The position numbers were made by a program, and so were the translations under genes. Below are positions 5,551-63,026 of a DNA stretch of 64,000 bases, in pieces. A model generated the notes under the pieces. The model was not told where the DNA came from, made no database searches, and saw nothing but the letters and a program-made list of their open reading frames with translations. Location of the stretch: the sequence record OM386667.1, one strand, 5' to 3'. Source of the DNA: Escherichia phage vB_EcoM_REC. How positions within the stretch are numbered: position 1 is the first letter of the stretch; each line of letters starts with the position of its first letter.

Positions 5551-8223
5551 ATGTTTCCAATTCCAATATTTACTATTATGACCAGCACTGGTGTCGTTCC
5601 TCTGCCAGCAGGTATTGTTAAAAAAGTAATCACTCTAGATTACCCAGATAATGCTGGCAATTCTAATAGCAGTTTAGCAATTTTGCTTAATGATGGTAGA
5701 TTGTTTACTCAAGGCGCAAACCTTTTTGGTGAGATTGCAGATGGAACTCGTAGTGCACGATTCAATAATTTCCACTTAGCTTCTACTGTAGTAGCGGATG
5801 TGTTTACCGCAGATCGTTGTTTTGTTATTAAAACTAACAGTGGGGGATGGCAATATTCAGGATTGACAGCAGGGTTGGTAGGATCTATAGCAGCAGGTGG
5901 TACGGATGCATGTGTAACTACTTGGACCAGCTTTCCATCTGTAATAACAGGGACTATCTCTTTAGCCAATCTTAAAGAGGTTAAGGGAGGATATAACAAC
6001 ACTCTCTGGTTGATGAATAGTGGTGTTCTTTATGGATCAGGTCAAAACACAGTAGGCAGTTTAGGTGCAAGTACTACTAACGAAGTTTCTACTCCTCGTC
6101 AGATAACAAGTGCAGCAGTTGCTTTTGATGCAGGTTACAACCAATGCTCTTATGTCAACAATGTGGGAACCTTGCGTGTTTGTGGGGCTAGTAAAGGTTT
6201 AGCAGGTAATAATAACACAACAACAGCTTTTGTCAATGCCAAGATATCCGCTACTGAAACAGTGTATGTCAAAGATTACATCAATACAGTTTCCCAGACA
6301 ATAGTTGTAGGAGATACCTCCGGTGGCACGGGTACAGTAAACTACTTATATGTTAGATCTAATACAGAAACAACCTACACTAAACTGGACACCTTTGCAG
6401 CAGGTTTCTCAACATGGAAATTTCCACCAAGCCGCCACTCTTTTTTCGTTGGGATCAATAATTCCTTGTGGGCTATTGGTAAGAACTACACTGCAAACTT
6501 AGGTTTGGGGTATGATTCTGCGAGCGGAGATCCACTCCAAGTGGGAAAACCAGTTAAACCTGAAGGAGTGGGTTCCTGGGATATAAACAAGCTCACAAGC
6601 GTTCATACACTGAATATGGATGTTACTAACCAATTAGGTTATCAAGGAACCTTTTTCGTTTATAATGGAGATATGTATTATTCAGGTATTTGGAAAGATG
6701 GGAAAGCCTCGTATCTGTTCAATAGTGGTCTAAACTATAATAAATTCACACCAATAGCAAGCTCCGTGATTACAGGGGATGTTCTGGCAACTGGCTTAAC
6801 TACAGATTCTTTAGGAATTTGTATTGTAGGTGGAACTAAACAGTTGACACATTCTGTTAGCCCAGAAGGAGGTAAACTTTTCAATATTAAATACACTTCT
6901 TCTGCCCCTGCAAACATGACAATATCATCTACTGGTTTAATGACTTTCCATGCAGAAGGTGGTTTTGATGCAGGTATGACAGCCTTAAACGCTGAAGGAA
7001 CAATTTTATCAGATACCTCTGGAGGATATGCTTCAACATTGAGTGTTTACACCCCTAGCTTATCTGCGATGGATGTAGGAACAACACAAACAATGGTAGC
7101 AGAAATAACACCAACAGGAGCAGCAAGCTTACCTGATATGGTTGTTGAGTATACAACTACAGATCCTAATGTTGCTACAGTAGATCCTACAACTGGTGTA
7201 ATAACTGGTGTTGGTGATGGTGGTTGTAGGATTGGTTGCACAGCTACGTATCAAGGTGTTGTTACCGCTTCTGATAGTTCTTATTTAACGGTGAATGCTG
7301 TTGCGGGAAAGGAGTTAGCTCCATCTCCGAGTAGTAGTTTAACGGTTCTAAACGGATATTTCAACCACTCGGCAGATGGGGCAATTACGTTCCCAACTTT
7401 ATCGGGTACTGTTACACCAGCTAACTTTGTAGTTAAGGTGGATGACGTTGTAGTTCCTTCAAGTAAAGTAATATTTAGAAACAAAGCTTTCTCTACAGTG
7501 GATAGTTATCCAGCAGGAGAATATAGACTGGCTATTGAATTTGCAAGTGCTTCAGTAGTTAATAGTGTGGAAGTGTCTATGGAAGCAAACCCAAGTCTTT
7601 TAGAACTTTGGGGCGGTAATAGAATCAGTTATTCTACAAGCCCAGCCTCACAATTCTTAAAAGGTTGTGCTAACTTAAGACGAATAACTTCTGATTGTTT
7701 TAGTAACACATCTTACACCGGAACATCTATAAGCGGTATCTTCTCTGGCTGCACAAGTTTGACAGCTATCCCTGAAGGATTATTCAGTGATGCTTTATTT
7801 CCTTCAATGACAACAATGTCAAGCACGTTTGAAGGTTGTACATCTTTAACATCTATTCCTTCAGATTTATTTAAGAATCTGTCAAAAGTTACAAGATATT
7901 CTTACACCTTTAAAGATTGCACCTCTCTTGCAGAAGTTCCAGCAGGAATGTTTGATAATATTCCAACGAAAGTGACCTCTTTAACAGCTACATTCCAAGG
8001 TTGTTTAGGACTTACAGATTTTAATAAGATCTTTAATGACAACCCAGGGTTAACTGTTTGTGGTAAACGTGGAGCATTATCTTCTTTCTTTAGTGGATGC
8101 ACAAATCTTACAGGAACAGGAACAACATTAACAAATACATTAGGCGGAGTAGCTAATAGTTACCTATTCAGGTATTGCACAAAACTTTCTGATTATAACA
8201 ACATTCCTTCCGGTTATAAATAA
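5551..8223 (+). CDS. tail fibre / adhesin-like protein with Ig-like (Big_2-type) segment and C-terminal BspA-type leucine-rich repeats
   Basis: 890 aa; segment DVGTTQTMVAEITPTGAASLPDMVVEYTTTDPNVATVDPTTGVITGVGDGG resembles bacterial Ig-like domains; C-terminus has repeated F.GCTSLT.IP..LF units. Confidence 0.5.
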   Translation: MFPIPIFTIMTSTGVVPLPAGIVKKVITLDYPDNAGNSNSSLAILLNDGRLFTQGANLFGEIADGTRSARFNNFHLASTVVADVFTADRCFVIKTNSGGWQYSGLTAGLVGSIAAGGTDACVTTWTSFPSVITGTISLANLKEVKGGYNNTLWLMNSGVLYGSGQNTVGSLGASTTNEVSTPRQITSAAVAFDAGYNQCSYVNNVGTLRVCGASKGLAGNNNTTTAFVNAKISATETVYVKDYINTVSQTIVVGDTSGGTGTVNYLYVRSNTETTYTKLDTFAAGFSTWKFPPSRHSFFVGINNSLWAIGKNYTANLGLGYDSASGDPLQVGKPVKPEGVGSWDINKLTSVHTLNMDVTNQLGYQGTFFVYNGDMYYSGIWKDGKASYLFNSGLNYNKFTPIASSVITGDVLATGLTTDSLGICIVGGTKQLTHSVSPEGGKLFNIKYTSSAPANMTISSTGLMTFHAEGGFDAGMTALNAEGTILSDTSGGYASTLSVYTPSLSAMDVGTTQTMVAEITPTGAASLPDMVVEYTTTDPNVATVDPTTGVITGVGDGGCRIGCTATYQGVVTASDSSYLTVNAVAGKELAPSPSSSLTVLNGYFNHSADGAITFPTLSGTVTPANFVVKVDDVVVPSSKVIFRNKAFSTVDSYPAGEYRLAIEFASASVVNSVEVSMEANPSLLELWGGNRISYSTSPASQFLKGCANLRRITSDCFSNTSYTGTSISGIFSGCTSLTAIPEGLFSDALFPSMTTMSSTFEGCTSLTSIPSDLFKNLSKVTRYSYTFKDCTSLAEVPAGMFDNIPTKVTSLTATFQGCLGLTDFNKIFNDNPGLTVCGKRGALSSFFSGCTNLTGTGTTLTNTLGGVANSYLFRYCTKLSDYNNIPSGYK

Positions 8224-8225
8224 GA

Positions 8226-8252
8226 AAAGGAGCCATTTGGCTCCTTTCTTTT
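8226..8252. terminator. bidirectional rho-independent terminator between convergent gene blocks
   Basis: AAAAGGAGCC-attt-GGCTCCTTTT, 9-bp stem flanked by A-run upstream and T-run downstream; lies between plus-strand stop (8223) and minus-strand stop (8280). Confidence 0.7.
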
Positions 8253-8279
8253 ATAAAAACTCTTTATAAATCAATAAGA

Positions 8280-9167
8280 TCAGAACGGAATATCATCATC
8301 GAAGTCCATCGGAGGTTCTTCTTGATTACTTGGAGTTGGTTCTGGTTGTGGTTCAGGCTTTTTAACTTCTTTCTTCTCTTCTTTCTTAGGTTGTTCTGCG
8401 GAACCACGAATGGCAGCAGCAACTTTATCAGACAGAGCCAGAACTTTACGAGCAGAATCAATCAGATCTTCTACAGATACAGTCTTAATGGTATGGTCTT
8501 TACAAGCATTAAGGATAGCGTGACCAACAGATGCCCCAAGATCATAATCATTAATATCAACGCCACGAGATTCAGCAATTTCAGATTTCAGCGTGACAGT
8601 TGCAGATTGAACAACCCCAGCGATATCGAAAGCATCGCCTTTAACACCATTACGAATCAGTTCCAGTGCACCATTTACTGCGTGACCAGTTTCCAGACCT
8701 ACAGTATCACGTTTTTTATAGGACTGTTTAGGAGCAGCATCGTTGGAACCTTTATTGCCAGAAGATTTGTTAGACTTCTGAACACCATCGGTAGACAATA
8801 CTGTAATACGAGATTTTTTAGTATTGTAGTAAGTTTTACCGCCTTTATTATCAACGCGATCAATATCAATACTTACTTCTACACCTTTTTCAATAGTGAT
8901 CCAGTTATCACCTTCTTTGACTTGCAGGTTTTCATAACCTTCTTTCAGTTCAATGTCACCAAGAGAAATCCAAACACCTTTCTCCTCTGGTTTAGCACCT
9001 TTCTCTTTCAGAACAAGAGAAGCTCGGTGAGTTGAAACAATCGTTTTTCCTTCCCAATGAAAAGTTTTAGGTTCAGCGAATTTATCCAGTTTAACGTAGT
9101 CTACGATACCAGTTGCATAAGTTACGGTTTTGCCTTTACGATCAGTTTCAGTATTAATTACGGACAT
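8280..9167 (-). CDS. single-stranded DNA-binding protein-like, with proline-rich linker and acidic C-terminal tip
   Basis: 295 aa; C-terminus ...KPEPQPEPTPSNQEEPPMDFDDDIPF is identical in its last residues to the E. coli SSB tip motif; N-terminal part is not a canonical E. coli-type OB sequence. Confidence 0.55.
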   Translation of the reverse strand: MSVINTETDRKGKTVTYATGIVDYVKLDKFAEPKTFHWEGKTIVSTHRASLVLKEKGAKPEEKGVWISLGDIELKEGYENLQVKEGDNWITIEKGVEVSIDIDRVDNKGGKTYYNTKKSRITVLSTDGVQKSNKSSGNKGSNDAAPKQSYKKRDTVGLETGHAVNGALELIRNGVKGDAFDIAGVVQSATVTLKSEIAESRGVDINDYDLGASVGHAILNACKDHTIKTVSVEDLIDSARKVLALSDKVAAAIRGSAEQPKKEEKKEVKKPEPQPEPTPSNQEEPPMDFDDDIPF

Positions 9168-9183
9168 TATTATCTCCTCTATA

Positions 9184-9576
9184 TTACATTAATTTTGCAC
9201 AGAAAGAGCGGAGTCTTTCCATATCATCTTGCTCTAACAGGTATTTACCTTTACCTATTCCAACTCCAATTTCACCGTTAGGGAAATGAACTATTTGCAC
9301 TGGAAAACCTCCGAGTTTAATTGTGGCAGCTTTGCCTTCTTCGTCTATAACGTTTCGGATTGTATCTTGCAGTGAAATGAATTCTTTGTTTGTAACAGTG
9401 GCTTCAATTATTTCAGAGGTTTCAACACGAGCCGTTAGCTTCTTGTCTCCACCTTGAATAATCAAAATTTGAAAATAAAAAGAGTTGTCAAGACCTACAA
9501 CATTTTTCTCAACTAGTGTCAAACTGGTATAATTTCCATAAACAGTTTCAACAGCTATTTTAGAACGTTCAGTCAT
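9184..9576 (-). CDS. hypothetical protein
   Basis: 130 aa ORF in the co-directional replication block, tight spacing to neighbours. Confidence 0.4.
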   Translation of the reverse strand: MTERSKIAVETVYGNYTSLTLVEKNVVGLDNSFYFQILIIQGGDKKLTARVETSEIIEATVTNKEFISLQDTIRNVIDEEGKAATIKLGGFPVQIVHFPNGEIGVGIGKGKYLLEQDDMERLRSFCAKLM

Positions 9577-9621
9577 TGAATGCTATCCTATCATAAAATG
9601 TTTAATATTGTCAAGCTTTAA

Positions 9622-10215
9622 TTACCAAGGAATATCTTCTTCTTCCAATTTGGTATCTACTTGAGGTGGACGTGGAACCTTAACCTCTTTAACAAAACGA
9701 AGATATGGAAAACGTGTAGCGATTTTAATAACATGTTTGGCATCTTCTCTAACATCTTTGTGCAAGAAGCAGATCCCTGTTTCCAAAGTTGTTTCAAAAT
9801 CTTTAGAGTAATAACAATCCTTTCCATCAAATGCAGCCTGGCAGATGGACAGATCAAACTCATTCAGAAAGGTTGTCATTACATTTGGGTCCATAATCAT
9901 AAGGTTGCAAAGCTGACCGTCACGTTCAAATTCAAAAACGTGTTTAAGACCAGTAACACCCTCGTAGTTATCAGAAGCCTCTTTGTTTCCTAGCTTACGA
10001 ACATTAGTTCCCATTAAAGCAGATGCAATTAGTTCTTGTATTTGCTCTTCTGATCGATGTGCAGGAAGTGACGTATAGAAATCCAGATCACGTCCAGCAA
10101 TATCAAGAATACGCCAATCACGAACAGCACCGCCAGCCAAGACAGAATTAGGATCAGCGATCTTTAAGACAGTAAGAATTTCTTTGGCAATGTTGATTTG
10201 TTTTGATTTAGTCAT
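9622..10215 (-). CDS. minimal nucleotidyltransferase (Pol-beta superfamily) with SSB-tip-like C-terminus
   Basis: 197 aa; GGAVRDWRILDIAGRDLDF resembles the GGxVRD...DxD head motif of CCA-adding/poly(A) polymerase-type nucleotidyltransferases; ends LEEEDIPW. Confidence 0.45.
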   Translation of the reverse strand: MTKSKQINIAKEILTVLKIADPNSVLAGGAVRDWRILDIAGRDLDFYTSLPAHRSEEQIQELIASALMGTNVRKLGNKEASDNYEGVTGLKHVFEFERDGQLCNLMIMDPNVMTTFLNEFDLSICQAAFDGKDCYYSKDFETTLETGICFLHKDVREDAKHVIKIATRFPYLRFVKEVKVPRPPQVDTKLEEEDIPW

Positions 10216-10426
10216 TGATACGCTCCACAGTTACTTTAACAATATCGTCCATATTAATCTCATCTCCCAAGACTTCAATAACACCTTCCTCATAAAGTCG
10301 AGCACATTCTTCCCATACTTCTGCTTCCGTCATTCCACCTTCAATCTTATTTGCAAGACCTTTAATAACATCTTCATTTTGTTCATCAATAAGAATTGAA
10401 ACATTAAAGCTCACTAGTTTACGCAT
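10208..10426 (-). CDS. hypothetical acidic protein
   Basis: 72 aa ORF overlapping the upstream stop by 8 bp. Confidence 0.35.
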   Translation of the reverse strand: MRKLVSFNVSILIDEQNEDVIKGLANKIEGGMTEAEVWEECARLYEEGVIEVLGDEINMDDIVKVTVERIND

Positions 10427-10603
10427 TGTTTTCTCCTTATACCTCTAAACGGAAAGTTTCTTTAGATACAAAATCGTATCCACCTTTTTCAAGCCAGTCA
10501 TTGTAAACCTCATCAGCTTGAGACTCTATCATAAAATACCGAGTGGTAATTTCGTCTCCGACAATACGCACAATTTTATAGCAAATCATGATACCATTTC
10601 CCA

Positions 10604-10844: not shown

Positions 10845-13800
10845 TCAATGACAGGATGCCCAGGAATTACCCACGTCATATCCGGCAGTAAGCTGAACGT
10901 TAAGATTGTAAAATTCTCCAGCCTTAGTAACAGCTAAAGCAGCAAGTTCACCTGCCCGACTATAAGCTGTAAACCATCCACCTTTGGGAGATTCATGAAT
11001 GTTAGCCCAAATTTGCCCTGTCTCTTTTTCCTTATTATGCTTCCATTCTTCAACTTTAGCAAGGCATTCTTTATCAATTTTCTTTTGTTCTTCAGGATCG
11101 TCTACTTTCTTCCAACCTAATGATTCAGGTGAAAACCATTTGAATTCTACAAGGTTACGAGAAACTTCAAGCTGGGCTTCATCGTGGTATGCAATCATTT
11201 GTTGCACGAAGTCTTTATTCTTCCAGTCATCTTTAAAGAAGTCAACACTTAGTCCTTCTTCTTCGATCATATCGTCATAAATAACCATTGCACGTTTAGC
11301 ACAGATAACCCCACCACTTTGGAACAGAGAGTTAAGAATCGCGTGAGCAGAACGAGTAGGAACCTTACGACCGTCAATACCCAAAACATACTGTTTACCA
11401 GTCTTAACCCAGAAATCGTTTAAACGTTCTTTAAGACGCGCCAGTGGGAATGCAGCTTCCCAGAAAGCATCGAACACCAGTTGCCCTGTAAACTTATCGC
11501 TACCAATTGTTTTAGCAACCTTGTCGGCTTGTGCACCATAGGTAATACCATACTTAACAGATTTAGCAGGACTACGTTCAAATTTACGTCCAATAGTTTC
11601 AGTGATACGTTTTGCCATCATGGTATGAACATCGTTAGGCTTCTCTAACAAGAGAGCGTTACAGTATTCATGAGGCTCCGGTTCGTAGCGCCAACAGTTT
11701 CCTGTGATGGTAATGCAGTCTTTCTGACGCATGACCCACGTACCAAGTTCTGTTTGTGGACACCAAACATCCTCTACACCCCACTCTTCAATAGTCAAAC
11801 TTTGAACAGGAATGTGAGAGCGGTTAGCCAATGTTACCACTTTTACTTTCTGCTCTTTTGTATTGAAAGCTACAGAGATATTGCCTCCATGCACCAGGTA
11901 CGAGGCAGTTAAAGCTGCTTCAAAAAGTTCACCTGGGTTCTGCGCCCAACGCCAAACAGGTTTTTGTTTATGTTCATGCCAGTAACCATCTGCAATCAAG
12001 AAACCTTCCAAGAAAGCTACACGCTCGGCATGAGACATATTAACTACACGCTCTACCCACGGAACATCCCATTTACCTTGTTGAACAGAAGTTAAACTAT
12101 TTACCTGATCTTGTTCCATGTTAAATGGAGCATTACAAATAATATTATCTCCTGTGCAAAGCTCGGCAGTTGTTCTGACTTTAGGCACATAAGTATTCCC
12201 TTTACTACGGGTATTAACATACCAACGGTGATCTGCTGTTGCACGGTAAGTGTGTGATTTCCCTTTAATCTCAAACGTCTTACTATTTTTATAGAAGACC
12301 TTACCTTTTACTTTAGTCCATTCTTTCAGACCTGTTTCAGCATTGTACCCTAAAATCTCATCCCCTTCCTTCAGGTCGTGATATCCTACCCAACCTTTAC
12401 GAGTCAAAGCTTGAGCATCCATCGGCACACAGTAATGTGATTCAATTTTTGCTTCCAAAGAGTCGAAGTCGTAGCCGATCTGGAAGTATTTAGGAACCTC
12501 TACACCAAACAAGTTACGCATCTCCCATCCAAACAAAGATGTGACACGAGGAATATTAGCTACAGATCTATGTTTCATACGAGAGGTTGCAGCATCACAT
12601 GTAGCGGCTGGTGTAGGAATACGCCCATCCGCCCTTACTGCGGCTAAGAAACCTTTATCGTATTCTTGATCTTCTTCATCTTCTTCCCAATCAGCACCGC
12701 CACCTAAAATAGAGTTCCTACGATGCTTATACGTTAAGTATTCTACAATCTGTGTAGCATAAGGAAATTTCTCACCCAAAGCTTGCAGGTTAGGACAAAT
12801 TTCTTTTTCCTGACCTTTGGTAAAACATGGGTTAGTCAATACTTTAAGACCGCGACCTTTACCTTTTGCTATACGCTCTTGAATCTTCCTTTCCAAAGTT
12901 TCCGGTGTGCACTCCAGATGATCACAACGATCCTGACAAAAATTAGAAGATAGAGTTTGCTCAACGTAAGCTCTAATACCTTTCTGAAGTTCTTCCTCGC
13001 TCTTTTTAATTTTGGTGCCAGATTTAAGCGTCAAGTCTTTATCTTTATATTCAGACGGTACCCAACCTAATCCTACGAGCCAGTTTTTAATATGGGTTGT
13101 ATCGTTCAATGTTGCAGGGATGTTAGGATCACATAGAGGCTCATCTGCTGCAACTGGCAGTTTCCACTCTTTCCCCCACATAACTAACCACCAATCGCCA
13201 TCCCTCTCTTCCAAATGACCATCATGTTTCTTAGCAAAATTGATCATATGGTTAGTTGGCTCTAAGTTCTTTTTAATTTGCAACTTAGGTGGAATAAAAG
13301 CCTTAAGATAACCTTTTGTTGCTGGTTTAGGTGGCAAAATAGGCTCAACGAGTAAACGAAGACGCTCCATTTCTGCATCCAAAAAAGCAAGGTTCTCTTC
13401 TGCTTGCTTCATGTTAAAAGCAAACCCACGGTGTTCCTGGCGTGTAATAATGTCTGCTACACGTTGTTCAAGTTCAAATGGACCTTCCCATTTATCATAA
13501 TCGCCCCATTCTTCCATAAGGTAATTATATACGCTCGTATTGGCTTTGTTGTCATAGATACAGTAATAAAGCATATCCGCAGCAAAAGTCTTAAATCGAT
13601 CTTCTTCTGGAATCTCTTTACGGAAATCTATTTTTACATCACCACCTGCTTTTCGAGAAAGTGCTGCCAAGCTATGTCCTGATTTGCCCTCAATCTTTCG
13701 ATCTGGGTTTAACACTTTACTCAAAATCAAGGAGTCAATAAGTTTTACCTTATTTTTGCCCCACGTATTATATTTAACACTGTAATCTAATCCATAAAAC

Positions 13801-14177
13801 AGTTTTGTAGCCAACCAGTCGTAGTTGATACCGTTGTGAGCCACAGCCATTTCAACCAGATATTCAGGCTTGTCTTTAAAATAACCTTCATGATTAATAA
13901 AATCTGGGAAATCTTTTAGTTGAAAATGTGTGTAATCTTGCGCCACATACTCTTTAAGAACATATGTGTATTTACCATCTGACTCTTCATAAGGACGCCC
14001 ATCAAAGATGTATTTAGGGCCATCGTGGAAAGCTACTATTTCTCCTGTTTCATGGTTCTCTAAGACAATACAGTGCATTTGAAATGTGTCTTTGAGACGA
14101 TAAGGACTAGCTAAATAATCAATAGTGTCATTATTCAACAATCCGTTTGCTTCAATATCCCATGTAAACTTACTCAC
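10845..14177 (-). CDS. family A DNA polymerase (T7 gp5-like) with 3-prime to 5-prime exonuclease domain, interrupted by an intein
   Basis: 1110 aa; N-terminal FTWDIEANGLL (exo I, cf. T7 MIVSDIEANALL), DFDSLEAKI (motif A), KYGITYGAQADKVAK (motif B), C-terminal GNSWASCH (cf. T7 GPNWAICH). Confidence 0.9.
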   Translation of the reverse strand: MSKFTWDIEANGLLNNDTIDYLASPYRLKDTFQMHCIVLENHETGEIVAFHDGPKYIFDGRPYEESDGKYTYVLKEYVAQDYTHFQLKDFPDFINHEGYFKDKPEYLVEMAVAHNGINYDWLATKLFYGLDYSVKYNTWGKNKVKLIDSLILSKVLNPDRKIEGKSGHSLAALSRKAGGDVKIDFRKEIPEEDRFKTFAADMLYYCIYDNKANTSVYNYLMEEWGDYDKWEGPFELEQRVADIITRQEHRGFAFNMKQAEENLAFLDAEMERLRLLVEPILPPKPATKGYLKAFIPPKLQIKKNLEPTNHMINFAKKHDGHLEERDGDWWLVMWGKEWKLPVAADEPLCDPNIPATLNDTTHIKNWLVGLGWVPSEYKDKDLTLKSGTKIKKSEEELQKGIRAYVEQTLSSNFCQDRCDHLECTPETLERKIQERIAKGKGRGLKVLTNPCFTKGQEKEICPNLQALGEKFPYATQIVEYLTYKHRRNSILGGGADWEEDEEDQEYDKGFLAAVRADGRIPTPAATCDAATSRMKHRSVANIPRVTSLFGWEMRNLFGVEVPKYFQIGYDFDSLEAKIESHYCVPMDAQALTRKGWVGYHDLKEGDEILGYNAETGLKEWTKVKGKVFYKNSKTFEIKGKSHTYRATADHRWYVNTRSKGNTYVPKVRTTAELCTGDNIICNAPFNMEQDQVNSLTSVQQGKWDVPWVERVVNMSHAERVAFLEGFLIADGYWHEHKQKPVWRWAQNPGELFEAALTASYLVHGGNISVAFNTKEQKVKVVTLANRSHIPVQSLTIEEWGVEDVWCPQTELGTWVMRQKDCITITGNCWRYEPEPHEYCNALLLEKPNDVHTMMAKRITETIGRKFERSPAKSVKYGITYGAQADKVAKTIGSDKFTGQLVFDAFWEAAFPLARLKERLNDFWVKTGKQYVLGIDGRKVPTRSAHAILNSLFQSGGVICAKRAMVIYDDMIEEEGLSVDFFKDDWKNKDFVQQMIAYHDEAQLEVSRNLVEFKWFSPESLGWKKVDDPEEQKKIDKECLAKVEEWKHNKEKETGQIWANIHESPKGGWFTAYSRAGELAALAVTKAGEFYNLNVQLTAGYDVGNSWASCH
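11697..12431 (-). mobile_element. intein with LAGLIDADG homing-endonuclease domain inserted between polymerase motifs A and B
   Basis: residues 583-827: begins CVPMDAQAL, contains TADHRWYV (block B T..H), FLEGFLIADGYW (LAGLIDADG), ends ...CITITGN followed by Cys +1; flanking extein sequence aligns with T7 polymerase. Confidence 0.6.
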
Positions 14178-15477: not shown

Positions 15478-15507
15478 GGTATTTTTAATAAAAGGGCCGA
15501 AGCCCTT
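15478..15507 (-). terminator. putative terminator after primase-helicase
   Basis: AAGGGC-cgaa-GCCCTT hairpin overlapping the stop codon, followed on the minus strand by UUAUUAAAAAU. Confidence 0.45.
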
Positions 15508-17284
15508 AATAGTTGCTATCCGTAGGCAAATTAGCAGGATTGTTGAAATACTGCTCTTTGTCATGCAGAGTTGCAGTTCTAATGTCATAGTAAAACTGCC
15601 CTGCCGGACCAGTTTCCGAGAACTCACGGTTTTTTAGGATAAAGCAATGAGTCGTATTGCGTTCTACAGGGTCTTCAGCGGCTTTATCTCGTTCCAAAGC
15701 CAAGGTAATACCAGCACCTTTAGCCAAGAAACTACTACCCATTGCATCGTCCTCTGTTAAGTGTTCATTGCCACCATTAGCCGATTTCTTAACGTGTGAG
15801 ATGACGATAATAGTTATAGCATACTCTTTCATAATGCGCTTCAACCATGTTGCTAACTCTTCTTGGGCTTGAACATCCATACCAGAAAGCAAATCAGAAT
15901 AAGGGTCGATAACAAGAATTGTTACTCCAAAATAGATGATCATCTCCAAAACTTTTTCTTTGATAGACTCCACATCTGCTCCACGATCATCACATACATA
16001 AAAACGTGGTGATCCATCTTCTCTTTCGTAAAAATCTAGGATTTTTTCTTTATTCTCTTCCAAGATTTGAAATTTCTCTTCCGGTGTTTTCCTGTGTAGA
16101 GGAATATGCAGGAACGAGGACAACAGGTTACGAGAATATTTCTTATAAGTTGCTTCCAAGGACAGGATACCTAGGGTATGTTCTGGGTGCGCAACAATAA
16201 TATGTTTGGTGATCTCGTTCACCATCAAAGTTTTACCGATACTGGTCTTTGCCAGGATGACTGTAATCTCTTCCTCTACTAAACCACCACCCAGCATGTT
16301 TGCAGCTACACGCATAAAAGGAGGCAAGGTAATCATCTTGGATTCCAAGCATTCTAATGCAGCTTCATACAAGACATTAGAAGCATAAACACCTGCTGGG
16401 GTGTATAGACGAGCACTCCAAAAAGCTTTTACGAAATCTTTTGCACGACCTTCTTCCAGATACTGATTGGCATCCTTAAGATCCATCTGCATACGGTAGA
16501 CTTTGTTACGAGGCAGCACCTTAACAATATTTTCAAATGCCTCATTACCTGCTTTATCATTATCCATGCAAACAATAATCTTCTTAAATTTTTCAAAGAA
16601 AGGATATTGTGCCTGAACTTGTTTATACATACTGGTTTCACCAGTTGTGCCACTAACTACTGCTGGAAGTTCATACTTGTTGTCCAAGTTTTCAGATAGC
16701 ATTTGATAAGCTGCCAGAGCATCGTGTTCACCACCTGTAATTACCACAGTATGAGAACGGTCTGCAAAACGAATTTGTCCAAAAAGATCTACATCTTTAC
16801 CTACTTGACCAATAGGTTTACTGAAATCTTTAGGATGAATACGACGCTTAAAACCAACCAATTCTTTACCGATAGTAGTCGGATATAAACAACTTTCTAC
16901 TACCATCTGATCCCCTTCCTGACGGTATTCATAACGAACACCATAGAAAGATGAAACTTTTTCTTTAATGCCTCGATAACCACGTGGGTTGGTTGATGTT
17001 TCTTGAACAATTTTACGATGAATCTGTTTATTAAATTCCGAACCCACAATCTCCTCCTCTTCTTCTAAAACTTCACCATTTTCTCGTAACCATTCTACGC
17101 TAGGAATAGTGTATTCACACGCAAAGCACTTAGCACCTTTATGCTCTCCATTAGAATCTAATCCATAAACCATCAGGTTATTACGAGAGCGATCCTTGCC
17201 ATTTTTCATGCAGCGCGGACAACCTGTATGCCCTTCCTTGCTAAGATCAACATCAAATCCATATTTAGTTATAATGTGCGACAC
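15506..17284 (-). CDS. bifunctional primase-helicase (T7 gp4-like)
   Basis: 592 aa; N-terminal Cys4 zinc ribbon (CPRC...CFAC), central TOPRIM-like region (VVITGGEHDALAAY), C-terminal P-loop helicase region (ILAKTSIGKTLMVNE). Confidence 0.8.
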   Translation of the reverse strand: MSHIITKYGFDVDLSKEGHTGCPRCMKNGKDRSRNNLMVYGLDSNGEHKGAKCFACEYTIPSVEWLRENGEVLEEEEEIVGSEFNKQIHRKIVQETSTNPRGYRGIKEKVSSFYGVRYEYRQEGDQMVVESCLYPTTIGKELVGFKRRIHPKDFSKPIGQVGKDVDLFGQIRFADRSHTVVITGGEHDALAAYQMLSENLDNKYELPAVVSGTTGETSMYKQVQAQYPFFEKFKKIIVCMDNDKAGNEAFENIVKVLPRNKVYRMQMDLKDANQYLEEGRAKDFVKAFWSARLYTPAGVYASNVLYEAALECLESKMITLPPFMRVAANMLGGGLVEEEITVILAKTSIGKTLMVNEITKHIIVAHPEHTLGILSLEATYKKYSRNLLSSFLHIPLHRKTPEEKFQILEENKEKILDFYEREDGSPRFYVCDDRGADVESIKEKVLEMIIYFGVTILVIDPYSDLLSGMDVQAQEELATWLKRIMKEYAITIIVISHVKKSANGGNEHLTEDDAMGSSFLAKGAGITLALERDKAAEDPVERNTTHCFILKNREFSETGPAGQFYYDIRTATLHDKEQYFNNPANLPTDSNY

Positions 17285-32744: not shown

Positions 32745-32936
32745 TTAAAATGGAAGTCTTTGAAGTTCATCTCCTCCGATATCAAGTAATTTAGCAACAT
32801 CTCGATCAGAAAGCAACTCTTTTCTTTGTAAAATATCCACAAGGGTTGCAAGAATGTCCTTAACGTCCCGATCACTGTTCTTCAAAAGTTCTCCTGCCGT
32901 CCCTACTCTATCTCCTACAGCAAAATATGTAACCAT
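32745..32936 (-). CDS. hypothetical small protein
   Basis: start moved to the internal ATG at 32936 with AGGAGG RBS overlapping the end of nrdG. Confidence 0.35.
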   Translation of the reverse strand: MVTYFAVGDRVGTAGELLKNSDRDVKDILATLVDILQRKELLSDRDVAKLLDIGGDELQRLPF

Positions 32937-32949
32937 GAAACCTCCTAAG

Positions 32950-33420
32950 TTAATCTGATTGCCAACCACTTGCCGTTTTGGTCCATAATCTTTGATTATC
33001 TGACCCTCTGAAAGGTTTTGTAGTTGGATTGTTTATTTCATACTTTCCGTCTACAATAATGTCAACAAGATTTTTAATATACAAAGGCACTTCCTCAAAA
33101 GTATATCCTGTATACACCATTATATCTTTGCTTGACCCATAAACGTCTCTAACCTTTTCTATAAGGTTTTTAACATTGTAAATATTCTGCGGATCTAATG
33201 GCTCTCCTCCTAAAATTGTTAAACCTTTTACAAACGGTCTTGACAAATCTTTTAAAACTTGCTCTACATTTTCGTGAGTAAACGGTTTCCCATAAGAATA
33301 AGACCAGGCTTTTTGGTTAAAACAGCCACGACAACCGTGGCTACAACCACTAACCCAGAGGGAGCACCTAACTCCCTCACCATTAATAAGATCTACAGGT
33401 TCATATCCTGCAAAATTCAA
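32950..33420 (-). CDS. nrdG: anaerobic ribonucleotide reductase activating protein (radical SAM)
   Basis: 156 aa; CSHGCRGC cluster near the N-terminus; directly downstream of and overlapping nrdD. Confidence 0.85.
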   Translation of the reverse strand: MNFAGYEPVDLINGEGVRCSLWVSGCSHGCRGCFNQKAWSYSYGKPFTHENVEQVLKDLSRPFVKGLTILGGEPLDPQNIYNVKNLIEKVRDVYGSSKDIMVYTGYTFEEVPLYIKNLVDIIVDGKYEINNPTTKPFRGSDNQRLWTKTASGWQSD

Positions 33421-58441: not shown

Positions 58442-58558
58442 ATGAATCCGAAAGATATGCAAGCATGGAAAGGGTACGACGATCTAAGCGCCTTGCGCAA
58501 TAAGTCAAGCCGTAACCTTAGACGGTTGGAAGCAAAGAAAAAGAAAAAAATAGTTTGA
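58442..58558 (+). CDS. early small basic peptide (38 aa)
   Basis: ATG 58442 after AAGGGGGATAAC. Confidence 0.35.
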   Translation: MNPKDMQAWKGYDDLSALRNKSSRNLRRLEAKKKKKIV

Positions 58559-58610
58559 CAAGTCCGCCTAGTCTGATAATATGTATCTTGTAGGGCGGCA
58601 ATGGTGCCGC
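58555..58610 (+). promoter_or_regulatory. early promoter-leader module (TTGACA-16-TAATAT plus hairpin GCGGCA-atgg-TGCCGC)
   Basis: -35 58555-58560 overlapping the upstream stop, -10 58577-58582, hairpin 58595-58610. Confidence 0.6.
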
Positions 58611-58631
58611 TCACAAGAAGAGAGAAAAATC

Positions 58632-58916
58632 ATGAAAATCACAAAAAGCCTGACTAATTATGCAGCACGTCGCGGATTATGTTTAACCGTTGAAAACTTA
58701 GGGAAAGAAGACTTTTTGTGTTTTTGGGAGCTTGAAAATGATTGCGAGTGGATGTTTTCTTATTCTATCTGCGAAGATCAAAACGGTTGTTTGTTAACCT
58801 GGCGCGGTAATATCTATTTACCGGAAGAAATTAAAGAAGAGTTACCAGGTACGATCATGACAGAGAGACAGCTTAAGGAAGTGATCAATTTTGTAGGGCA
58901 AAACATTAAAAAATAA
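58632..58916 (+). CDS. early small Cys-containing protein
   Basis: 94 aa from ATG 58632; track ORF starts inside the promoter. Confidence 0.5.
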   Translation: MKITKSLTNYAARRGLCLTVENLGKEDFLCFWELENDCEWMFSYSICEDQNGCLLTWRGNIYLPEEIKEELPGTIMTERQLKEVINFVGQNIKK

Positions 58917-58917
58917 T

Positions 58918-58978
58918 TTGACAGTAGGCAAACAACGTAGTAAAGTTTATTACATAGGGCGGCGGAATGGTCCACCGC
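58918..58978 (+). promoter_or_regulatory. early promoter-leader module (TTGACA-17-TAAAGT plus hairpin GCGGCGGA-atgg-TCCACCGC)
   Basis: -35 58918-58923, -10 58941-58946, hairpin 58959-58978. Confidence 0.55.
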
Positions 58979-59001
58979 TCACAACAGAAGAGAAACAAAT
59001 C

Positions 59002-59172
59002 ATGATCCCGACTATGTTTTATGTATCGCGCAAAGGTCACAATATTTTTTGGTCTGAAGATTTAAATGAAGCCATGACGTTTGCCCGTGATCGTGTCGCT
59101 ATCGGTGGCGTTAACATCACCGTAACCGATGAAAACGGCATTGAATACTATAACGGCAACGATGAAGAGTAA
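59002..59172 (+). CDS. early small protein
   Basis: 56 aa from ATG 59002; track ORF starts at the TTG of the -35 box. Confidence 0.45.
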   Translation: MIPTMFYVSRKGHNIFWSEDLNEAMTFARDRVAIGGVNITVTDENGIEYYNGNDEE

Positions 59173-59178
59173 TCAACA

Positions 59179-59198
59179 AGGCGGGATTAATCCCGCCT
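59179..59198 (+). other. intergenic stem-loop without U-tract (candidate RNA processing or stability element)
   Basis: AGGCGGGA-ttaa-TCCCGCCT, 8-bp perfect stem, not followed by a T-run; similar U-less GC hairpins at about 60541-60558 and 60823-60842. Confidence 0.4.
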
Positions 59199-59216
59199 GT
59201 ATTAAAGGGTAATATA

Positions 59217-59363
59217 ATGAAAACTTTCAACGCAACAGCCTCGACAATTGGTTATATTATTACAGTGCAAGCCGTGGATCTGGTAGCAGCAACAAACAAG
59301 ATTAAAAGAATGATCCCGATAGGCAGTGAATTTTCCGTTTGGGAAGTAAAAAATAAATCTTGA
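59217..59363 (+). CDS. early small protein (48 aa)
   Basis: ATG 59217 after AAAGGGTAAT; stop overlaps the next -35 box. Confidence 0.35.
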   Translation: MKTFNATASTIGYIITVQAVDLVAATNKIKRMIPIGSEFSVWEVKNKS

Positions 59364-59421
59364 CGATAATTTGTTATCTGATAGAATGTATTTCGTAGGG
59401 CGGGGCAATAAGGCAACGCCC
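59360..59421 (+). promoter_or_regulatory. early promoter-leader module (TTGACG-16-TAGAAT plus imperfect hairpin GGGCG...CGCCC)
   Basis: -35 59360-59365, -10 59382-59387, hairpin about 59398-59421. Confidence 0.5.
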
Positions 59422-59439
59422 ATTAATGAGGGTAGAATC

Positions 59440-59544
59440 ATGTTAGAGAAAATTTTCACGGTTGTAGTAGTTGGCCTGGCGTTATCGGTTGGAGTGGTTG
59501 CAACTATGGCTAACATGATCCTATCTTCCCACGGTATCGGTTAA
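59440..59544 (+). CDS. early small membrane peptide (34 aa)
   Basis: ATG 59440 after GAGGGTAGAATC; hydrophobic. Confidence 0.3.
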   Translation: MLEKIFTVVVVGLALSVGVVATMANMILSSHGIG

Positions 59545-59554
59545 GGTGAAACAA

Positions 59555-59770
59555 ATGATCACGAACAAAACAGGCAAAACGGAATTTTTACGCGGCTTAC
59601 AAGTTGGTAAGCCTGAGATCTGGCATTGCACGAAGTCCGCGCATAATGAAATGAAAGATTTCACCGCTACTTTACAACGTGTTAAAATATCTATCACACA
59701 GAAAAAAGCCTTGTTGGTAGTAGAAAACGAGATCCCGCAAACTATTATTATTGTCGAGCGTACAGCATGA
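59555..59770 (+). CDS. early small protein
   Basis: 71 aa from ATG 59555 after AAGGTGA. Confidence 0.45.
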   Translation: MITNKTGKTEFLRGLQVGKPEIWHCTKSAHNEMKDFTATLQRVKISITQKKALLVVENEIPQTIIIVERTA

Positions 59771-60153
59771 AAACAGAAATCATTATTGAAATCATCAACG
59801 GCTATAAAGAAGCCTTTATTTTTGCTGAATCAGCAAGGGATCATGAAGGTAATTTTATTGATAACTTAGACGATTATGATTTTTCTCCTAGCGCGGACGA
59901 ACGGATCGCCCAGGATGTAACAGCCTTTATTAATGCTAATCTTGCCGCTATCTCTGAGGCAATGAGCGACGGCGCAACAGCCAACCAGATCGGGAATGAT
60001 TTACATTTTACCCGTAACAGTCACGGCGTAGGCTTTTGGGATCGCCCTGAAATATACACCACTAACACGGCGAACCGCCTAACCAATGCAGCTAAGTTTA
60101 TGCCGAACGTGTCGGCTTACATTGGTGAAGATAATTTGATTTATATTGAATAA
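59767..60153 (+). CDS. early protein
   Basis: 128 aa, start overlaps the upstream stop. Confidence 0.5.
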   Translation: MKTEIIIEIINGYKEAFIFAESARDHEGNFIDNLDDYDFSPSADERIAQDVTAFINANLAAISEAMSDGATANQIGNDLHFTRNSHGVGFWDRPEIYTTNTANRLTNAAKFMPNVSAYIGEDNLIYIE

Positions 60154-60159
60154 AAAGTA

Positions 60160-60215
60160 TTGACACAGATCGCCAGTGTGCTAATATTTACCACGTAGGG
60201 CGGCAATGGTGCCGC
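60160..60215 (+). promoter_or_regulatory. early promoter-leader module (TTGACA-16-TAATAT plus hairpin GCGGCA-atgg-TGCCGC)
   Basis: -35 60160-60165, -10 60182-60187, hairpin 60200-60215. Confidence 0.6.
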
Positions 60216-60234
60216 CGATAATGAGGAAAGTAAA

Positions 60235-60534
60235 ATGGAAACTATCGCTATTGTTACCGTAGAAAAACTGGTTGTTGGTGATGTATTCGCGTTAATGGTG
60301 CCTAACAGCAGCAAACTGGGTGCTTATGAAGTAATGGATCATAAAAATGAATCATTTGGCGACGGTTGCACAATGGCGGTAAAATCTTTAAAGGATGGAA
60401 TCATCCGCCAGGCTAACTGGCACAAAGGGAATCAAGTCGGTTTAATATCAGCTAATTTCTTGCCAGAAGAGCAAACGTTAGACCAACTATCAGGCGGTAA
60501 GACGTTAGCCGAACTACTGGAAACAGCGATCTAA
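60235..60534 (+). CDS. early small protein
   Basis: 99 aa. Confidence 0.5.
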   Translation: METIAIVTVEKLVVGDVFALMVPNSSKLGAYEVMDHKNESFGDGCTMAVKSLKDGIIRQANWHKGNQVGLISANFLPEEQTLDQLSGGKTLAELLETAI

Positions 60535-60578
60535 TCAACAAAGGGGCGGCAACGCCCCACATCAGAAAGGAAAAGATT

Positions 60579-60815
60579 ATGAGTATTGCAACAGTATTAA
60601 ACGCCGTTAAAACCGCTGAATCATCCGGCTTGCATGTTGAGCTTATAGATCAACCAGGTGGCGATCTCCTTGTCCAGGTTTACCCGCCGAAAGTAGGGGA
60701 TGATTATTATTGGGCTTATTCTGATACGTTCGAACAAGTAGACACGAAAGCGATCACGGCTTTTATTTTAAAAGCTATTGAAGAAAATAACTTTCATCAT
60801 AACATCAATCAATAA
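60579..60815 (+). CDS. early small protein
   Basis: 78 aa; preceded by a U-less GC hairpin. Confidence 0.5.
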   Translation: MSIATVLNAVKTAESSGLHVELIDQPGGDLLVQVYPPKVGDDYYWAYSDTFEQVDTKAITAFILKAIEENNFHHNINQ

Positions 60816-60869
60816 ACCATAAGCGGGGCGGTAACGCCCCATTAAACGCAATAGGAAGAGGATAGACGC

Positions 60870-61154
60870 ATGAAAAAGATGATCGCAGTAGTTGCCCTGG
60901 TTGTTGGTATTAACGCGCCTGTAATGGCGAAAGAGTTGCCAGAATCCATCACGTTAACCGATATTAACGCAGTGAACCGGATCGGCGTTAATTATCGCCT
61001 ATGCCTTGCCGCTAAAACTTTCCAGGACGGCACAACAGAGTACTACGGATTCGAGGGTGTCCGGTGCGGTGAGCTTGCACGCGACCTTAAGGAAGATCCA
61101 GACCTTGAGGCCATACCGATGACCGTAAACGGTAAAGCCCAGGTAAACCGCTAA
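60870..61154 (+). CDS. early secreted small protein
   Basis: 94 aa; signal peptide MKKMIAVVALVVGINAPVMA. Confidence 0.5.
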   Translation: MKKMIAVVALVVGINAPVMAKELPESITLTDINAVNRIGVNYRLCLAAKTFQDGTTEYYGFEGVRCGELARDLKEDPDLEAIPMTVNGKAQVNR

Positions 61155-61156
61155 CC

Positions 61157-61291
61157 ATGAGAAAGGTAATCATCACAATGGGGATCGTAGTAGCAACGCT
61201 GGCGCTTATCCCCTTCATGGTTGAATATGTGCTGATTAATGTTGTCCTGGTAGTCAGTGACCTATTGGAAACGGTTGGCACCTGGTTTTAA
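61157..61291 (+). CDS. early small membrane peptide (44 aa)
   Basis: ATG 61157 immediately after the upstream stop; hydrophobic. Confidence 0.3.
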   Translation: MRKVIITMGIVVATLALIPFMVEYVLINVVLVVSDLLETVGTWF

Positions 61292-61303
61292 GGAGTAATA
61301 AAA

Positions 61304-61423
61304 ATGAATGCAGAACAAGTTAGAAAGGTATTAGCAGCGTTGCGGTATCACAACCATAGCAAGGTAAAAAATGATCCTGATTATGTGGATCAAGCCTGGA
61401 AGAAGACACATTGCAAGCTATAA
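61304..61423 (+). CDS. early small peptide (39 aa)
   Basis: ATG 61304 after AAGGAGTAATAA. Confidence 0.3.
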   Translation: MNAEQVRKVLAALRYHNHSKVKNDPDYVDQAWKKTHCKL

Positions 61424-61504
61424 GCCATATGCAAGAATTGTTTAAGCGTATGACAGAGAAAAACAGATCTGATTATATAGGTGACGAGATCTAATCTTTA
61501 CAAA

Positions 61505-61535
61505 AACAGGGCTTGCTTTTGTCCTGTTTTTTGTT
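61505..61535 (+). terminator. possible terminator
   Basis: AAACAGG-gcttgcttttgt-CCTGTTTTTTG; long loop, low confidence. Confidence 0.3.
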
Positions 61536-61671
61536 ATGCTTATTGAACGGGCGGCACTTGGGAGCAGGGGAAGATAATCACCGGAAGACCCCGCTATATA
61601 TTGATAGCTAATACCTATCAAACAACAAAACATCAAAGAGATAAACTATCAAATCTTTACAATCCCACCTA

Positions 61672-61729
61672 TTGACACCGGATCACGCTTACATTATTAT
61701 TTATCACGTAGGGCGGGAATGTTTCCCAC
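61672..61729 (+). promoter_or_regulatory. early promoter-leader module (TTGACA-17-TATTAT plus hairpin GCGGGAA-tgt-TTCCCAC)
   Basis: -35 61672-61677, -10 61695-61700, hairpin 61713-61729. Confidence 0.55.
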
Positions 61730-61748
61730 CTGATTTAGGAGTCATATC

Positions 61749-61982
61749 ATGATCGAACAAATTAAAAGCACTACACCAAATGTTAACGGTAATGTTTCTC
61801 ACTTTATCGGGGATAATGAAAGAGGTACACCGTACGCCGCCGTAACCGTTCAACCTAACGGGGATTATTGGTTTACCGTGTACGGATCTTACTCTTTTGG
61901 ACGTTCGGCACATGATAAGATCTTGCAAGTGGTTAAGCCTACTGGGAAGAATATCACAGCAGAAAAATTTTATAAAAAATAA
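61749..61982 (+). CDS. early small protein
   Basis: 77 aa; RBS TTAGGAG. Confidence 0.5.
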   Translation: MIEQIKSTTPNVNGNVSHFIGDNERGTPYAAVTVQPNGDYWFTVYGSYSFGRSAHDKILQVVKPTGKNITAEKFYKK

Positions 61983-61983
61983 C

Positions 61984-62012
61984 TTGCTTTATAGCTCCTG
62001 TTAACTTATAGT
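61984..62012 (+). promoter_or_regulatory. weak promoter candidate (TTGCTT-17-TATAGT)
   Basis: -35 61984-61989, -10 62007-62012; followed by a different GC element rather than the canonical hairpin. Confidence 0.35.
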
Positions 62013-62060
62013 TATTGCGTAGGGCGAGCAATACAGCAAGCCCACAAAGAGGAAAATAAA

Positions 62061-62429
62061 ATGAGCAAATCAGCAATTAAAGCACTTGAAAAAGCACAAG
62101 AAGTGATCGCAACGTCAACCACTGGCGCAAAGGTTAATCTCGTTGGTTATCTGACAGATGAAACTATCCGTAAAAATTGGCGTAATGCTGATTTACTCGC
62201 TTGCTTATTGATTAATAGTGTCGCTAATGCTTTCCAGTGTGAAACAGCCGAGAGCCTGGAGGAAAACTTGTTTGATAATATGGATCAAGCCATTGAAACC
62301 TATATACAATCAAACCTGGATAGCTGGAACAGTAAAACATGGCCCGACAATTTACGCGATACAACTGATCAACTGATCCGCCTTGCCCTGATGGTTGAAC
62401 GCGATAACGTTCACAACCGCACAAAGTAA
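62061..62429 (+). CDS. early protein
   Basis: 122 aa; RBS AAGAGGAAAA. Confidence 0.5.
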   Translation: MSKSAIKALEKAQEVIATSTTGAKVNLVGYLTDETIRKNWRNADLLACLLINSVANAFQCETAESLEENLFDNMDQAIETYIQSNLDSWNSKTWPDNLRDTTDQLIRLALMVERDNVHNRTK

Positions 62430-62439
62430 GATTATACAA

Positions 62440-62460
62440 GGGGCGCACTAAGCGCCCTTT
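62440..62460 (+). terminator. weak terminator or stem-loop
   Basis: GGGCGC-actaa-GCGCCC followed by TTT only. Confidence 0.4.
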
Positions 62461-62495
62461 AACGTAAAGAAATGTAAATAATGCGCTATCCCCTA

Positions 62496-62524
62496 TTGAC
62501 AGGGGATCGGCGTTATATTATATT
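62496..62524 (+). promoter_or_regulatory. promoter (TTGACA-17-TATATT), no leader hairpin
   Basis: -35 62496-62501 embedded in palindrome CCCCT-attgac-AGGGG, -10 62519-62524. Confidence 0.45.
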
Positions 62525-62564
62525 TAACTCACTGGCAGCAAACAACGAAACAAAGGACAACACC

Positions 62565-62984: not shown

Positions 62985-62999
62985 TTGACAACAAAACAA

Positions 63000-63026
63000 G
63001 GGGCGCACCAAGCGCCCTTTCTTTTT
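63000..63026 (+). terminator. rho-independent terminator closing the early array
   Basis: GGGCGC-accaa-GCGCCC followed by TTTCTTTTTG. Confidence 0.7.

Follow-up and report, generated by a model that had tools for sequence, protein, structure and literature searches.

Conserved SSB-type C-terminal tails on an SSB-like protein and on a predicted nucleotidyltransferase in the replication module of Escherichia phage vB_EcoM_REC

The C-terminal tip of SSB (single-stranded DNA-binding protein) in Escherichia coli, DFDDDIPF, is a central docking handle in bacterial genome maintenance, with an interactome that includes ExoI, RecQ, PriA, chi, RecO, RecG, DnaG and others. The SSBs of phages are in addition known to trigger several defence systems (DRT10, Retron-Eco8 and DARNA). 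Here we describe two genes in a 64,000-nucleotide stretch of Escherichia phage vB_EcoM_REC (OM386667.1; the whole of this stretch is referred to as the window), one encoding an SSB-like protein and the other a small predicted nucleotidyltransferase, whose products both end in peptides of the SSB-tip type. A protein with such a tip has been studied in another phage: Bas52_0087 of the Vequintavirus RudolfGeigy is described as SSB-like with a conserved FDDDIPF “C-tip”, has been linked to host ExoI/SbcB, and must be present for the DRT10 reverse-transcriptase defence to be triggered (bioRxiv 10.64898/2026.04.29.721553). Acidic tails that are shared between two replication proteins are described in phage T7, where the Phe-ended tails of gp2.5 and gp4 use the same site on the T7 polymerase, and where the structure of gp5 with the gp4 tail peptide DTDF (PDB 6P7E) is the template for placing the gp2.5 tail (PMC12339929).

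Comparison of the window with these systems shows both likenesses and differences. The SSB-like protein has the same last 12 residues as E. coli SSB, also at the end of a disordered linker, but the carrier of this first tail is an oligonucleotide/oligosaccharide-binding (OB) fold followed by a four-helix domain, and not a PF00436 protein. The second carrier is an enzyme that ends in W and has no known domain for binding single-stranded DNA (ssDNA), although its tail has the acidic run, the I-P and the terminal aromatic residue of the SSB tip, and several of its orthologues also have the aromatic residue at position -7. Bas52_0087 is homologous to the SSB-like protein in the OB and helical domains (33-35% identity) and shares the FDDDIPF tip, but with 408 residues it contains an extra inserted OB domain that the window protein does not have. 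In the alignment, D252V, which is one of its two escape substitutions, falls on D154, a near-invariant residue where the helical domain begins. The 16 kb examined around Bas52_0087 showed no nucleotidyltransferase with a tail. The likeness to T7 consists of two replication-module proteins with acidic, aromatic-ended tails encoded alongside a gp4-like primase-helicase and a family-A polymerase, and it extends to other phages in which the gp4-like primase-helicase itself has a DDIPW tail. In contrast to T7, the second tailed protein in the window is a nucleotidyltransferase and not a helicase, and the window tail copies that of the host SSB and not the T7 type (...DTDF), with docking on the polymerase suggested by analogy only. 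Based on these comparisons of sequence, we propose, with a probability of roughly 0.6, that both tails are portable SSB-type docking peptides, and that the enzyme is tethered by its tail to tip-binding pockets on ssDNA intermediates.

The SSB-like protein ends in ...PSNQEEPPMDFDDDIPF, and its last 12 residues (EPPMDFDDDIPF) match those of E. coli SSB (chains 1eqq/4mz9 and 7f2n) at 12 of 12 positions, with the PSN immediately upstream matching too. This identity confirms the original prediction, made from the sequence of the window, that this protein bears the SSB tip of its host. The same prediction had taken the tip to point to an enterobacterial or related gammaproteobacterial host, and this was borne out by Escherichia phage ESCO5 (Phapecoctavirus, Stephanstirmvirinae), which is 100% identical to positions 8000-10500 of the window and has E. 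coli as its recorded host; identity over these positions is 95-99% with ~60 other coliphages. Among the 120 database homologues of the SSB-like protein, a tip of the form acidic-x-[ILVC]-P-F is terminal in 103, whereas in the other 17 a short extension comes after this tip; in the 121 sequences of this family just four columns are invariant, P294 and F295 among them. The final 40 nt of the SSB-like gene are 90-92.5% identical to E. coli ssb, which is not clearly higher than the ~82% that we estimate, roughly, from codon choice for 12 identical codons, and we therefore do not claim a recent capture of the 3′ end of the host ssb gene.

The nucleotidyltransferase ends in ...VDTKLEEEDIPW (...TKLEEEDIPW, then the stop codon), and its residues 178-197 have a predicted local distance difference test score (pLDDT) below 50, like an SSB linker. 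Our scan of the 922 open reading frames (ORFs) of at least 40 residues present in the window and in the rest of the ESCO5 record (a genome of ~150 kb) identified only two proteins with an acidic-[ILVM]-P-aromatic end, the SSB-like protein and this enzyme; from the amino-acid composition of the phage, one would expect ~0.0016 such tails in 270 proteins. In all 10 close orthologues of the enzyme (58-97% identity), the last residues are an acidic run, a hydrophobic residue and P-W, with DDIPW or EDIPW present in 9 and DDSFPW in 1. Across these 11 sequences the linker varies in both length and sequence while the tip stays fixed; short linear docking motifs typically show this combination of an unchanging tip and a variable linker, here predicted to be disordered. 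The orthologue tails DFEDDIPW, DFQDDIPW, DYKDDIPW, DMDDDIPW and NFPDDIPW follow the eight-residue register of the SSB tip DFDDDIPF, and the aromatic residue at -7 is present in DFEDDIPW, DFQDDIPW, DYKDDIPW and NFPDDIPW. Peptide-binding studies of ExoI and RecO have shown that both the DFDD and the DIPF halves of the SSB tip contribute, and that bulkier aromatic groups at the last position of the tip result in ~10-fold higher affinity (PMC10143822). A separate 74-residue ORF (32745-32969, minus strand) ends in ...GGDELQRLPF, i.e., L-P-F without an acidic run, and matches no Pfam family.

Our survey of the 150 best representatives of the enzyme family identified the strict tip in four lineages: the Phapecoctavirus clade, P0136 (NFPDDIPW, 35% identity), P0238 (NDIPW, 27%) and P0280 (DDGIPF, 30%). 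The genomic contexts of the last three were obtained by exact look-up, none having been returned by the IMG/VR search. The P0136 contig (L010, enzyme at 10001-10600) encodes a polymerase, small ORFs, the enzyme, the 130-residue ORF and an SSB, i.e., the same order as in the window; the N-terminus of its SSB is nearly identical to that of the window protein, yet the enzyme beside it shares only 35% identity with that of the window and has kept the DDIPW end, and the tail has therefore outlasted divergence or replacement of the enzyme. P0280 adjoins a primase-helicase, and the P0238 contig also encodes a FEN-like exonuclease with an acidic ...DDFDDF tail. In three phage lineages, the nucleotidyltransferase gene is located two genes from the SSB gene.

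Tips ending in W are common on other viral proteins. A scan with the pattern [DE][DE]DIPW followed by TAA, confined to this acidic pattern and to this one stop codon (TAG and TGA being left aside), gave at least 120 matches in IMG/VR viral contigs (loci L027-L146), with 114 of the 120 matches listed being in-frame ends of ORFs of at least 50 residues. These fall into 22 sequence clusters, which Pfam and PHROGs assign to PF00436 SSBs, a gp32-like SSB (PF08804), small SSB-like proteins, a gp4-like primase-helicase (Toprim + DnaB_C), superfamily 2 (SF2) DNA helicases, DUF6511, several unknown families, and this nucleotidyltransferase. True phage SSBs of two folds end in DDDIPW, and a terminal Trp is therefore a natural variant of the SSB tip. 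Phages attach this transferable module to many proteins that are not SSBs. In 596 Gb of bacterial and archaeal genomes, the pattern occurred in only 76 stretches (L147-L222), against ~100 expected by chance in a rough information-content estimate of our own, and ~35 of the 76 are distinct ORF ends, several of them phage-like. The W-ended form of the SSB tip seems to be largely an invention of viruses, although this contrast between viral and cellular sequences is semi-quantitative, the size of the viral collection not being known. The register of the orthologue tails, the W-ended true phage SSBs and the tails on other replication proteins strengthen the proposal that the end of the enzyme is of the same style as the SSB tip, and both tails in the window are real, conserved, C-terminal peptides of the SSB-tip type on disordered tethers. 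At another viral locus (L079; 626-1357 and 2265-2720), a canonical SSB ending in ...DDDIPW is encoded beside a PolB-exo-like 3′-5′ exonuclease ending in ...LELDEIPF, which makes a second pair of an SSB and a neighbouring enzyme with tails of the tip type; here the SSB ends in W and the enzyme in F, the reverse of the window. Our literature search on SSB tips carried by non-SSB proteins found no such paper in the collection searched.

The protein that the original prediction called “SSB-like” has a predicted OB fold, a disordered linker and the I-P-F tip, but is not a member of PF00436: no match to this family was found at E-values up to 0.1, and the PDB and NCBIfam matches of the protein are confined to its C-terminal tail. 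The protein belongs to PHROG 4477 (“unknown function”, E 4e-97). An AlphaFold2 model built from 121 sequences (mean pLDDT 77) predicts an N-terminal OB fold that resembles SSB or RPA, a disordered segment at residues 131-149, and four helices (156-172, 179-201, 208-223 and 232-253; pLDDT 88-95), followed by residues 259-283 with pLDDT below 50. Residues D154, G161, G211 and G215 are invariant or nearly so. When the model was used in a BFVD fold search, only uncharacterised phage proteins were retrieved. As judged from family searches and the predicted model, the SSB-like protein is a separate family made of an OB fold plus a helical domain, and not a canonical PF00436 SSB; that it may bind ssDNA and form homotetramers we infer from its fold, its gene position and the genetics of Bas52_0087. 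In one locus (L019; 8001-9113 and 9150-10592), two SSB-like paralogues of 370 and 480 residues are encoded in tandem, and end in ...DLDIPF and ...DLDVPF.

The 197-residue protein is predicted to be a minimal nucleotidyltransferase of the Pol-beta fold with intact catalytic motifs. Residues G28, G29, A30, V31, R32, D33, D43, L44 and D45 are invariant in 13 sequences, down to 33% identity, and the model consists of a Pol-beta core, a small beta/alpha extension and the disordered tail, and nothing more. The enzyme family comprises 1039 representatives at 50% identity, mostly of 180-220 residues, and the PHROG families to which the enzyme belongs are labelled “nucleotidyltransferase”. The PF01743 model (the head of class II CCA-adding enzymes and poly(A) polymerases) scores 15.4 bits, below the Pfam cut-off of 23 bits, and the best E-value for PF01743 among 13 family members is 0.0011; no solved structure related by sequence was found in either single-sequence or profile searches. 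Compared with the PF01743 head and with minimal Pol-beta nucleotidyltransferases such as MenT, MntA and LinB, the window enzyme is thus sub-threshold, has no tRNA-binding domains, and bears an SSB-type tail. There is also a likeness to Gad2 (PF26128), an anti-Gabija nucleotidyltransferase of ~400 residues from SPbeta-like phages, in that both are phage-borne proteins with a nucleotidyltransferase domain. Four relatives of the enzyme (P0009, P0136, P0238 and P0280) have precomputed PF26128 matches, the graded ones being weak or faint, and our local Pfam and NCBIfam scans did not reproduce a Gad2 match; we therefore treat Gad2 membership as a lead.

In the reading that we prefer, each tail would act as a docking peptide made of an acidic run, I-P-aromatic and a free carboxylate at the end of a disordered linker. 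The SSB-like protein would be the phage's own ssDNA coat, and its host-identical tip would allow phage ssDNA to engage proteins with an SSB-tip pocket, i.e., ExoI and other SSB-interacting proteins of the host and, probably, the T7-like replisome of the phage as well. The D-I-P-W tip would tether the enzyme to the same class of pocket, with the enzyme being delivered to, and competing at, SSB-coated ssDNA or replication forks, and not acting as a free tRNA CCA-adding enzyme. The interpretation in the original prediction, of recruitment through the tips or of competition for their pockets, is partly supported. We infer from sequence that the tips bind SSB-tip pockets, and likewise the owner of the pocket and the substrate of the enzyme. 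Host partners are suggested as owners of the pocket by the 12-mer shared with the host SSB and by the connection of the Bas52 homologue with ExoI, and the phage family-A polymerase is, by analogy with T7, a candidate partner. As substrate, our guess favours nucleic-acid 3′ ends at ssDNA intermediates (on DNA coated with SSB, or on RNA primers), the alternative being nucleotidylylation of a tip-binding protein. The rapid divergence of the enzyme beside a conserved SSB would be compatible with a role in an arms race.

Several observations weigh against this docking role. The terminal residue of the enzyme is W and not F, and this ending is rare in cellular genomes, so that the target may lie elsewhere than in host pockets. 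The enzyme of phi92 type, which is 36% identical and encoded at the same gene position, ends in ...NNEEFKI, and an L016-type relative, again at the same position, ends in ...FMDEI; both are untailed, and the tail is therefore accessory and dispensable for the core role of the enzyme. The window allele, LEEEDIPW, has no aromatic residue at -7, although the acidity is present as EEED, and the model of the enzyme is only moderately confident (pLDDT 65). For the SSB-like family, the tip is buried under an extension of 14-17 residues in 17 of the 120 homologues, including phi92 gp156; viable phages therefore exist with a tip that is not C-terminal, and a free C-terminal Phe is not indispensable in this family.

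The extension found after ...DIPF in these homologues consists of AP[IV]GLQY plus 7-10 mostly hydrophobic residues, and the encoded C-terminus of phi92 gp156 is ...IPFAPIGLQYGRNFLHCF. In three very divergent lineages (L002, L023 and L026), a gene for an HNH homing endonuclease begins in or just after the extension, whereas phi92 retains the extension but just ~10 codons of the start of the endonuclease. The seven APIGLQY codons show synonymous differences at every position among four sequences, with zero amino-acid changes, which means that selection acts on this peptide in the SSB frame. The arrangement resembles a mobile cassette of an endonuclease homing to the conserved sequence that encodes the tip and bringing a replacement C-terminus, by which the tip is masked. 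The SSB-like allele of the window stops at 8280-8282, without the extension. No consistent link between a free SSB tip and a tailed enzyme emerged when L002, phi92 and L016 were compared: the SSB is extended in both L002 and phi92, but the enzyme is tailed only in the former, and L016 combines a free tip with an untailed enzyme.

We considered four other explanations for the tail of the enzyme. The first is that the W tip, which may bind more tightly than the F tip, is a competitor or decoy that mainly occupies the pockets of host SSB partners or of defence sensors watching for phage SSB, either blocking them or guiding nucleotidylylation, in anti-defence or host takeover. This is rather unlikely in our view, although several findings speak for it: bulkier terminal aromatics raise the affinity for ExoI and RecO, W tips are mainly viral, the enzyme is fast-evolving or replaced (35%) beside a near-identical SSB, as seen in arms-race genes, relatives of the enzyme have the weak or faint precomputed Gad2 matches, and the SSB-like family triggers DRT10 in a setting that depends on ExoI. 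However, the Gad2 matches were not reproduced locally and Gad2 is ~400 residues in length, and W tips also occur on bona fide phage SSBs and helicases, where plain docking is the simpler explanation. A more far-reaching form of the idea, and one that we consider doubtful, is that W tips are virus-specific and possibly higher-affinity tags, grafted by phages onto unrelated proteins, that would out-compete host SSB for the pockets of its partners, and that here such a tag would guide the enzyme to nucleotidylylate or block a tip-binding host protein or defence sensor; if this were true, the protein would be a tip-guided anti-host or anti-defence enzyme.

A second explanation is that the tail mimics ssDNA. 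The tails of E. coli SSB, T7 gp2.5 and T4 gp32 bind their own DNA-binding domains, in competition with ssDNA, and by the same means the acidic tail of the enzyme could bind the groove of an SSB OB fold, of either host or phage, and loosen the SSB so that the enzyme reaches 3′ ends, with no third-party pocket involved. The strong acidity of the tail, its flexible linker, and the location of the enzyme gene two genes from the SSB gene in three phage lineages all fit such a mechanism. We nevertheless regard it as unlikely, as I-P-W is strictly kept, which goes beyond charge alone and points to a shaped hydrophobic pocket, and as the phi92-type enzymes at the same locus are untailed.

A third explanation takes the GenBank label of the enzyme, “tRNA nucleotidyltransferase / poly(A) polymerase”, at its word, in which case the tail would have nothing to do with SSB biology and would be neutral, a degron or an aid to oligomerisation. 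The GGxVRD...DxD motif is present, the best weak matches are to the head of class II CCA-adding enzymes and poly(A) polymerases, and the phage has 10 tRNAs as well as RNA-ligase and phosphoesterase genes. The PF01743 match is sub-threshold, however, and the 197-residue protein has no neck, body or tail domains of the kind that hold a tRNA. In addition, all ten phage tRNA genes (the ESCO5 tRNA cluster, L004 7194-9205, outside the window) encode their own 3′ CCA, and a CCA-adding enzyme is therefore not needed for maturation of the phage tRNAs. The gene is located in the replication module, between those for the DNA polymerase and the SSB, away from the tRNA and RNA-repair genes, and the conservation of the tail and its recurrence on replication proteins would be left unexplained. 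These findings argue against the GenBank label and make this explanation improbable. Finally, a chance resemblance, for which it can be said that the window allele shares just D-I-P, the aromatic residue and upstream acidity with the SSB tip, is effectively refuted by the expectation of ~0.0016 such tails per genome, by a tip that is kept to 35% identity over a variable linker, by orthologues that match the full eight-residue register, and by the 114 of 120 listed viral matches that are genuine ORF ends.

The finding on the tip of the SSB-like protein is not new: it is annotated in RefSeq and has in essence been published for the homologue Bas52_0087. What is new is the conserved SSB-type tail on a nucleotidyltransferase of the replication module, together with the wider set of grafted, largely viral W tips: the SSB-tip handle is a transferable module on phage enzymes without an SSB fold, this nucleotidyltransferase included. 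A pocket that binds the tail offers a cheap route to finding the targets of orphan phage enzymes, and the mostly viral W-ended variant could guide the design of inhibitors that mimic the SSB tip. A probably misleading annotation as “tRNA nucleotidyltransferase”, present in dozens of Phapecoctavirus genomes, is also corrected.

Both genes are part of a replication operon that is transcribed leftward from the minus strand, in the order primase/helicase, two ORFs, family-A DNA polymerase, three small ORFs, nucleotidyltransferase, 130-residue ORF, SSB-like gene (Table 1). The original prediction placed the nucleotidyltransferase two genes away from the SSB-like gene, and this is correct, with the 130-residue ORF as the one gene that separates them; phi92 (gp157) and locus L010 have this ORF at the same position.

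Table 1. Positions of the genes, domains and motifs discussed in the text (window numbering unless another locus is named)
Feature	Position	Strand	Basis or remark
Gene for 295-residue SSB-like protein	8280..9167	-	RefSeq YP_009787160.1, annotated “single-stranded DNA-binding protein”
N-terminal OB-fold domain (beta-barrel, residues 1-125)	8793..9167	-	predicted model
Four-helix domain (residues 156-253), candidate oligomerisation domain	8409..8702	-	model and conservation
Disordered Lys/Glu/Pro-rich linker and tip (residues 254-295)	8283..8408	-	tip EPPMDFDDDIPF at 8283-8318
Conserved 130-residue ORF between the two tailed genes	9184..9576	-	PHROG 16560, E 3.5e-76
Gene for 197-residue nucleotidyltransferase	9622..10215	-	YP_009787162.1
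Catalytic motifs GGAVRD (residues 28-33) and DLD (residues 43-45)	10081..10134	-	alignment
Disordered C-terminal linker (residues 178-197) and tip LEEEDIPW	9625..9684	-	tip at 9625-9648
Family-A (T7-like) DNA polymerase	10845..14177	-	Pfam DNA_pol_A and annotation
gp4-like primase/helicase	15506..17284	-	annotation; C-terminus ...PTDSNY, no acidic tail
Bidirectional terminator-like hairpin, between SSB-like gene and convergent tail-protein gene	8225..8248		operon end
Extended homologue, phi92 gp156	L013 699-1646		
Region with extended homologue, locus L002	L002 4001-5399		
Region with extended homologue, locus L023	L023 8001-9850		
Region with extended homologue, locus L026	L026 7674-8700		

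We made some further observations on the neighbouring genes. The Bas52 primase/helicase (L009 132-1691) ends in an acidic ...GFEDDETPF, like T7 gp4, whereas the window orthologue ends without acidity; an acidic tail on the primase-helicase of this phage, as found in T7 and Bas52, was therefore rejected. The family-A polymerase ORF (1110 residues) reads as though an intein were inserted after motif A (...ESHY|CVPMD...ITGN|CWRYEP), and the only Pfam match in this ORF is DNA_pol_A, at residues 845-1009. In Bas52, the annotation of the polymerase joins two pieces, and the close relative L002 encodes a polymerase of 1189 residues and an extra ORF of 198 residues. Between the nucleotidyltransferase gene and the 130-residue ORF, a promoter-like site (TTGACA, an 18-nt spacer, TG-TAGGAT) is located at 9585-9614 on the minus strand, with the count of promoter-like sites in this region being no higher than in shuffled sequence. 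Towards the end of the window, positions 58500-64000 have no match within positions 1-91000 of the ESCO5 record, and a collinear extrapolation of this segment would overrun the end of that record; the segment is 100% identical to the sister phage ESCO37.

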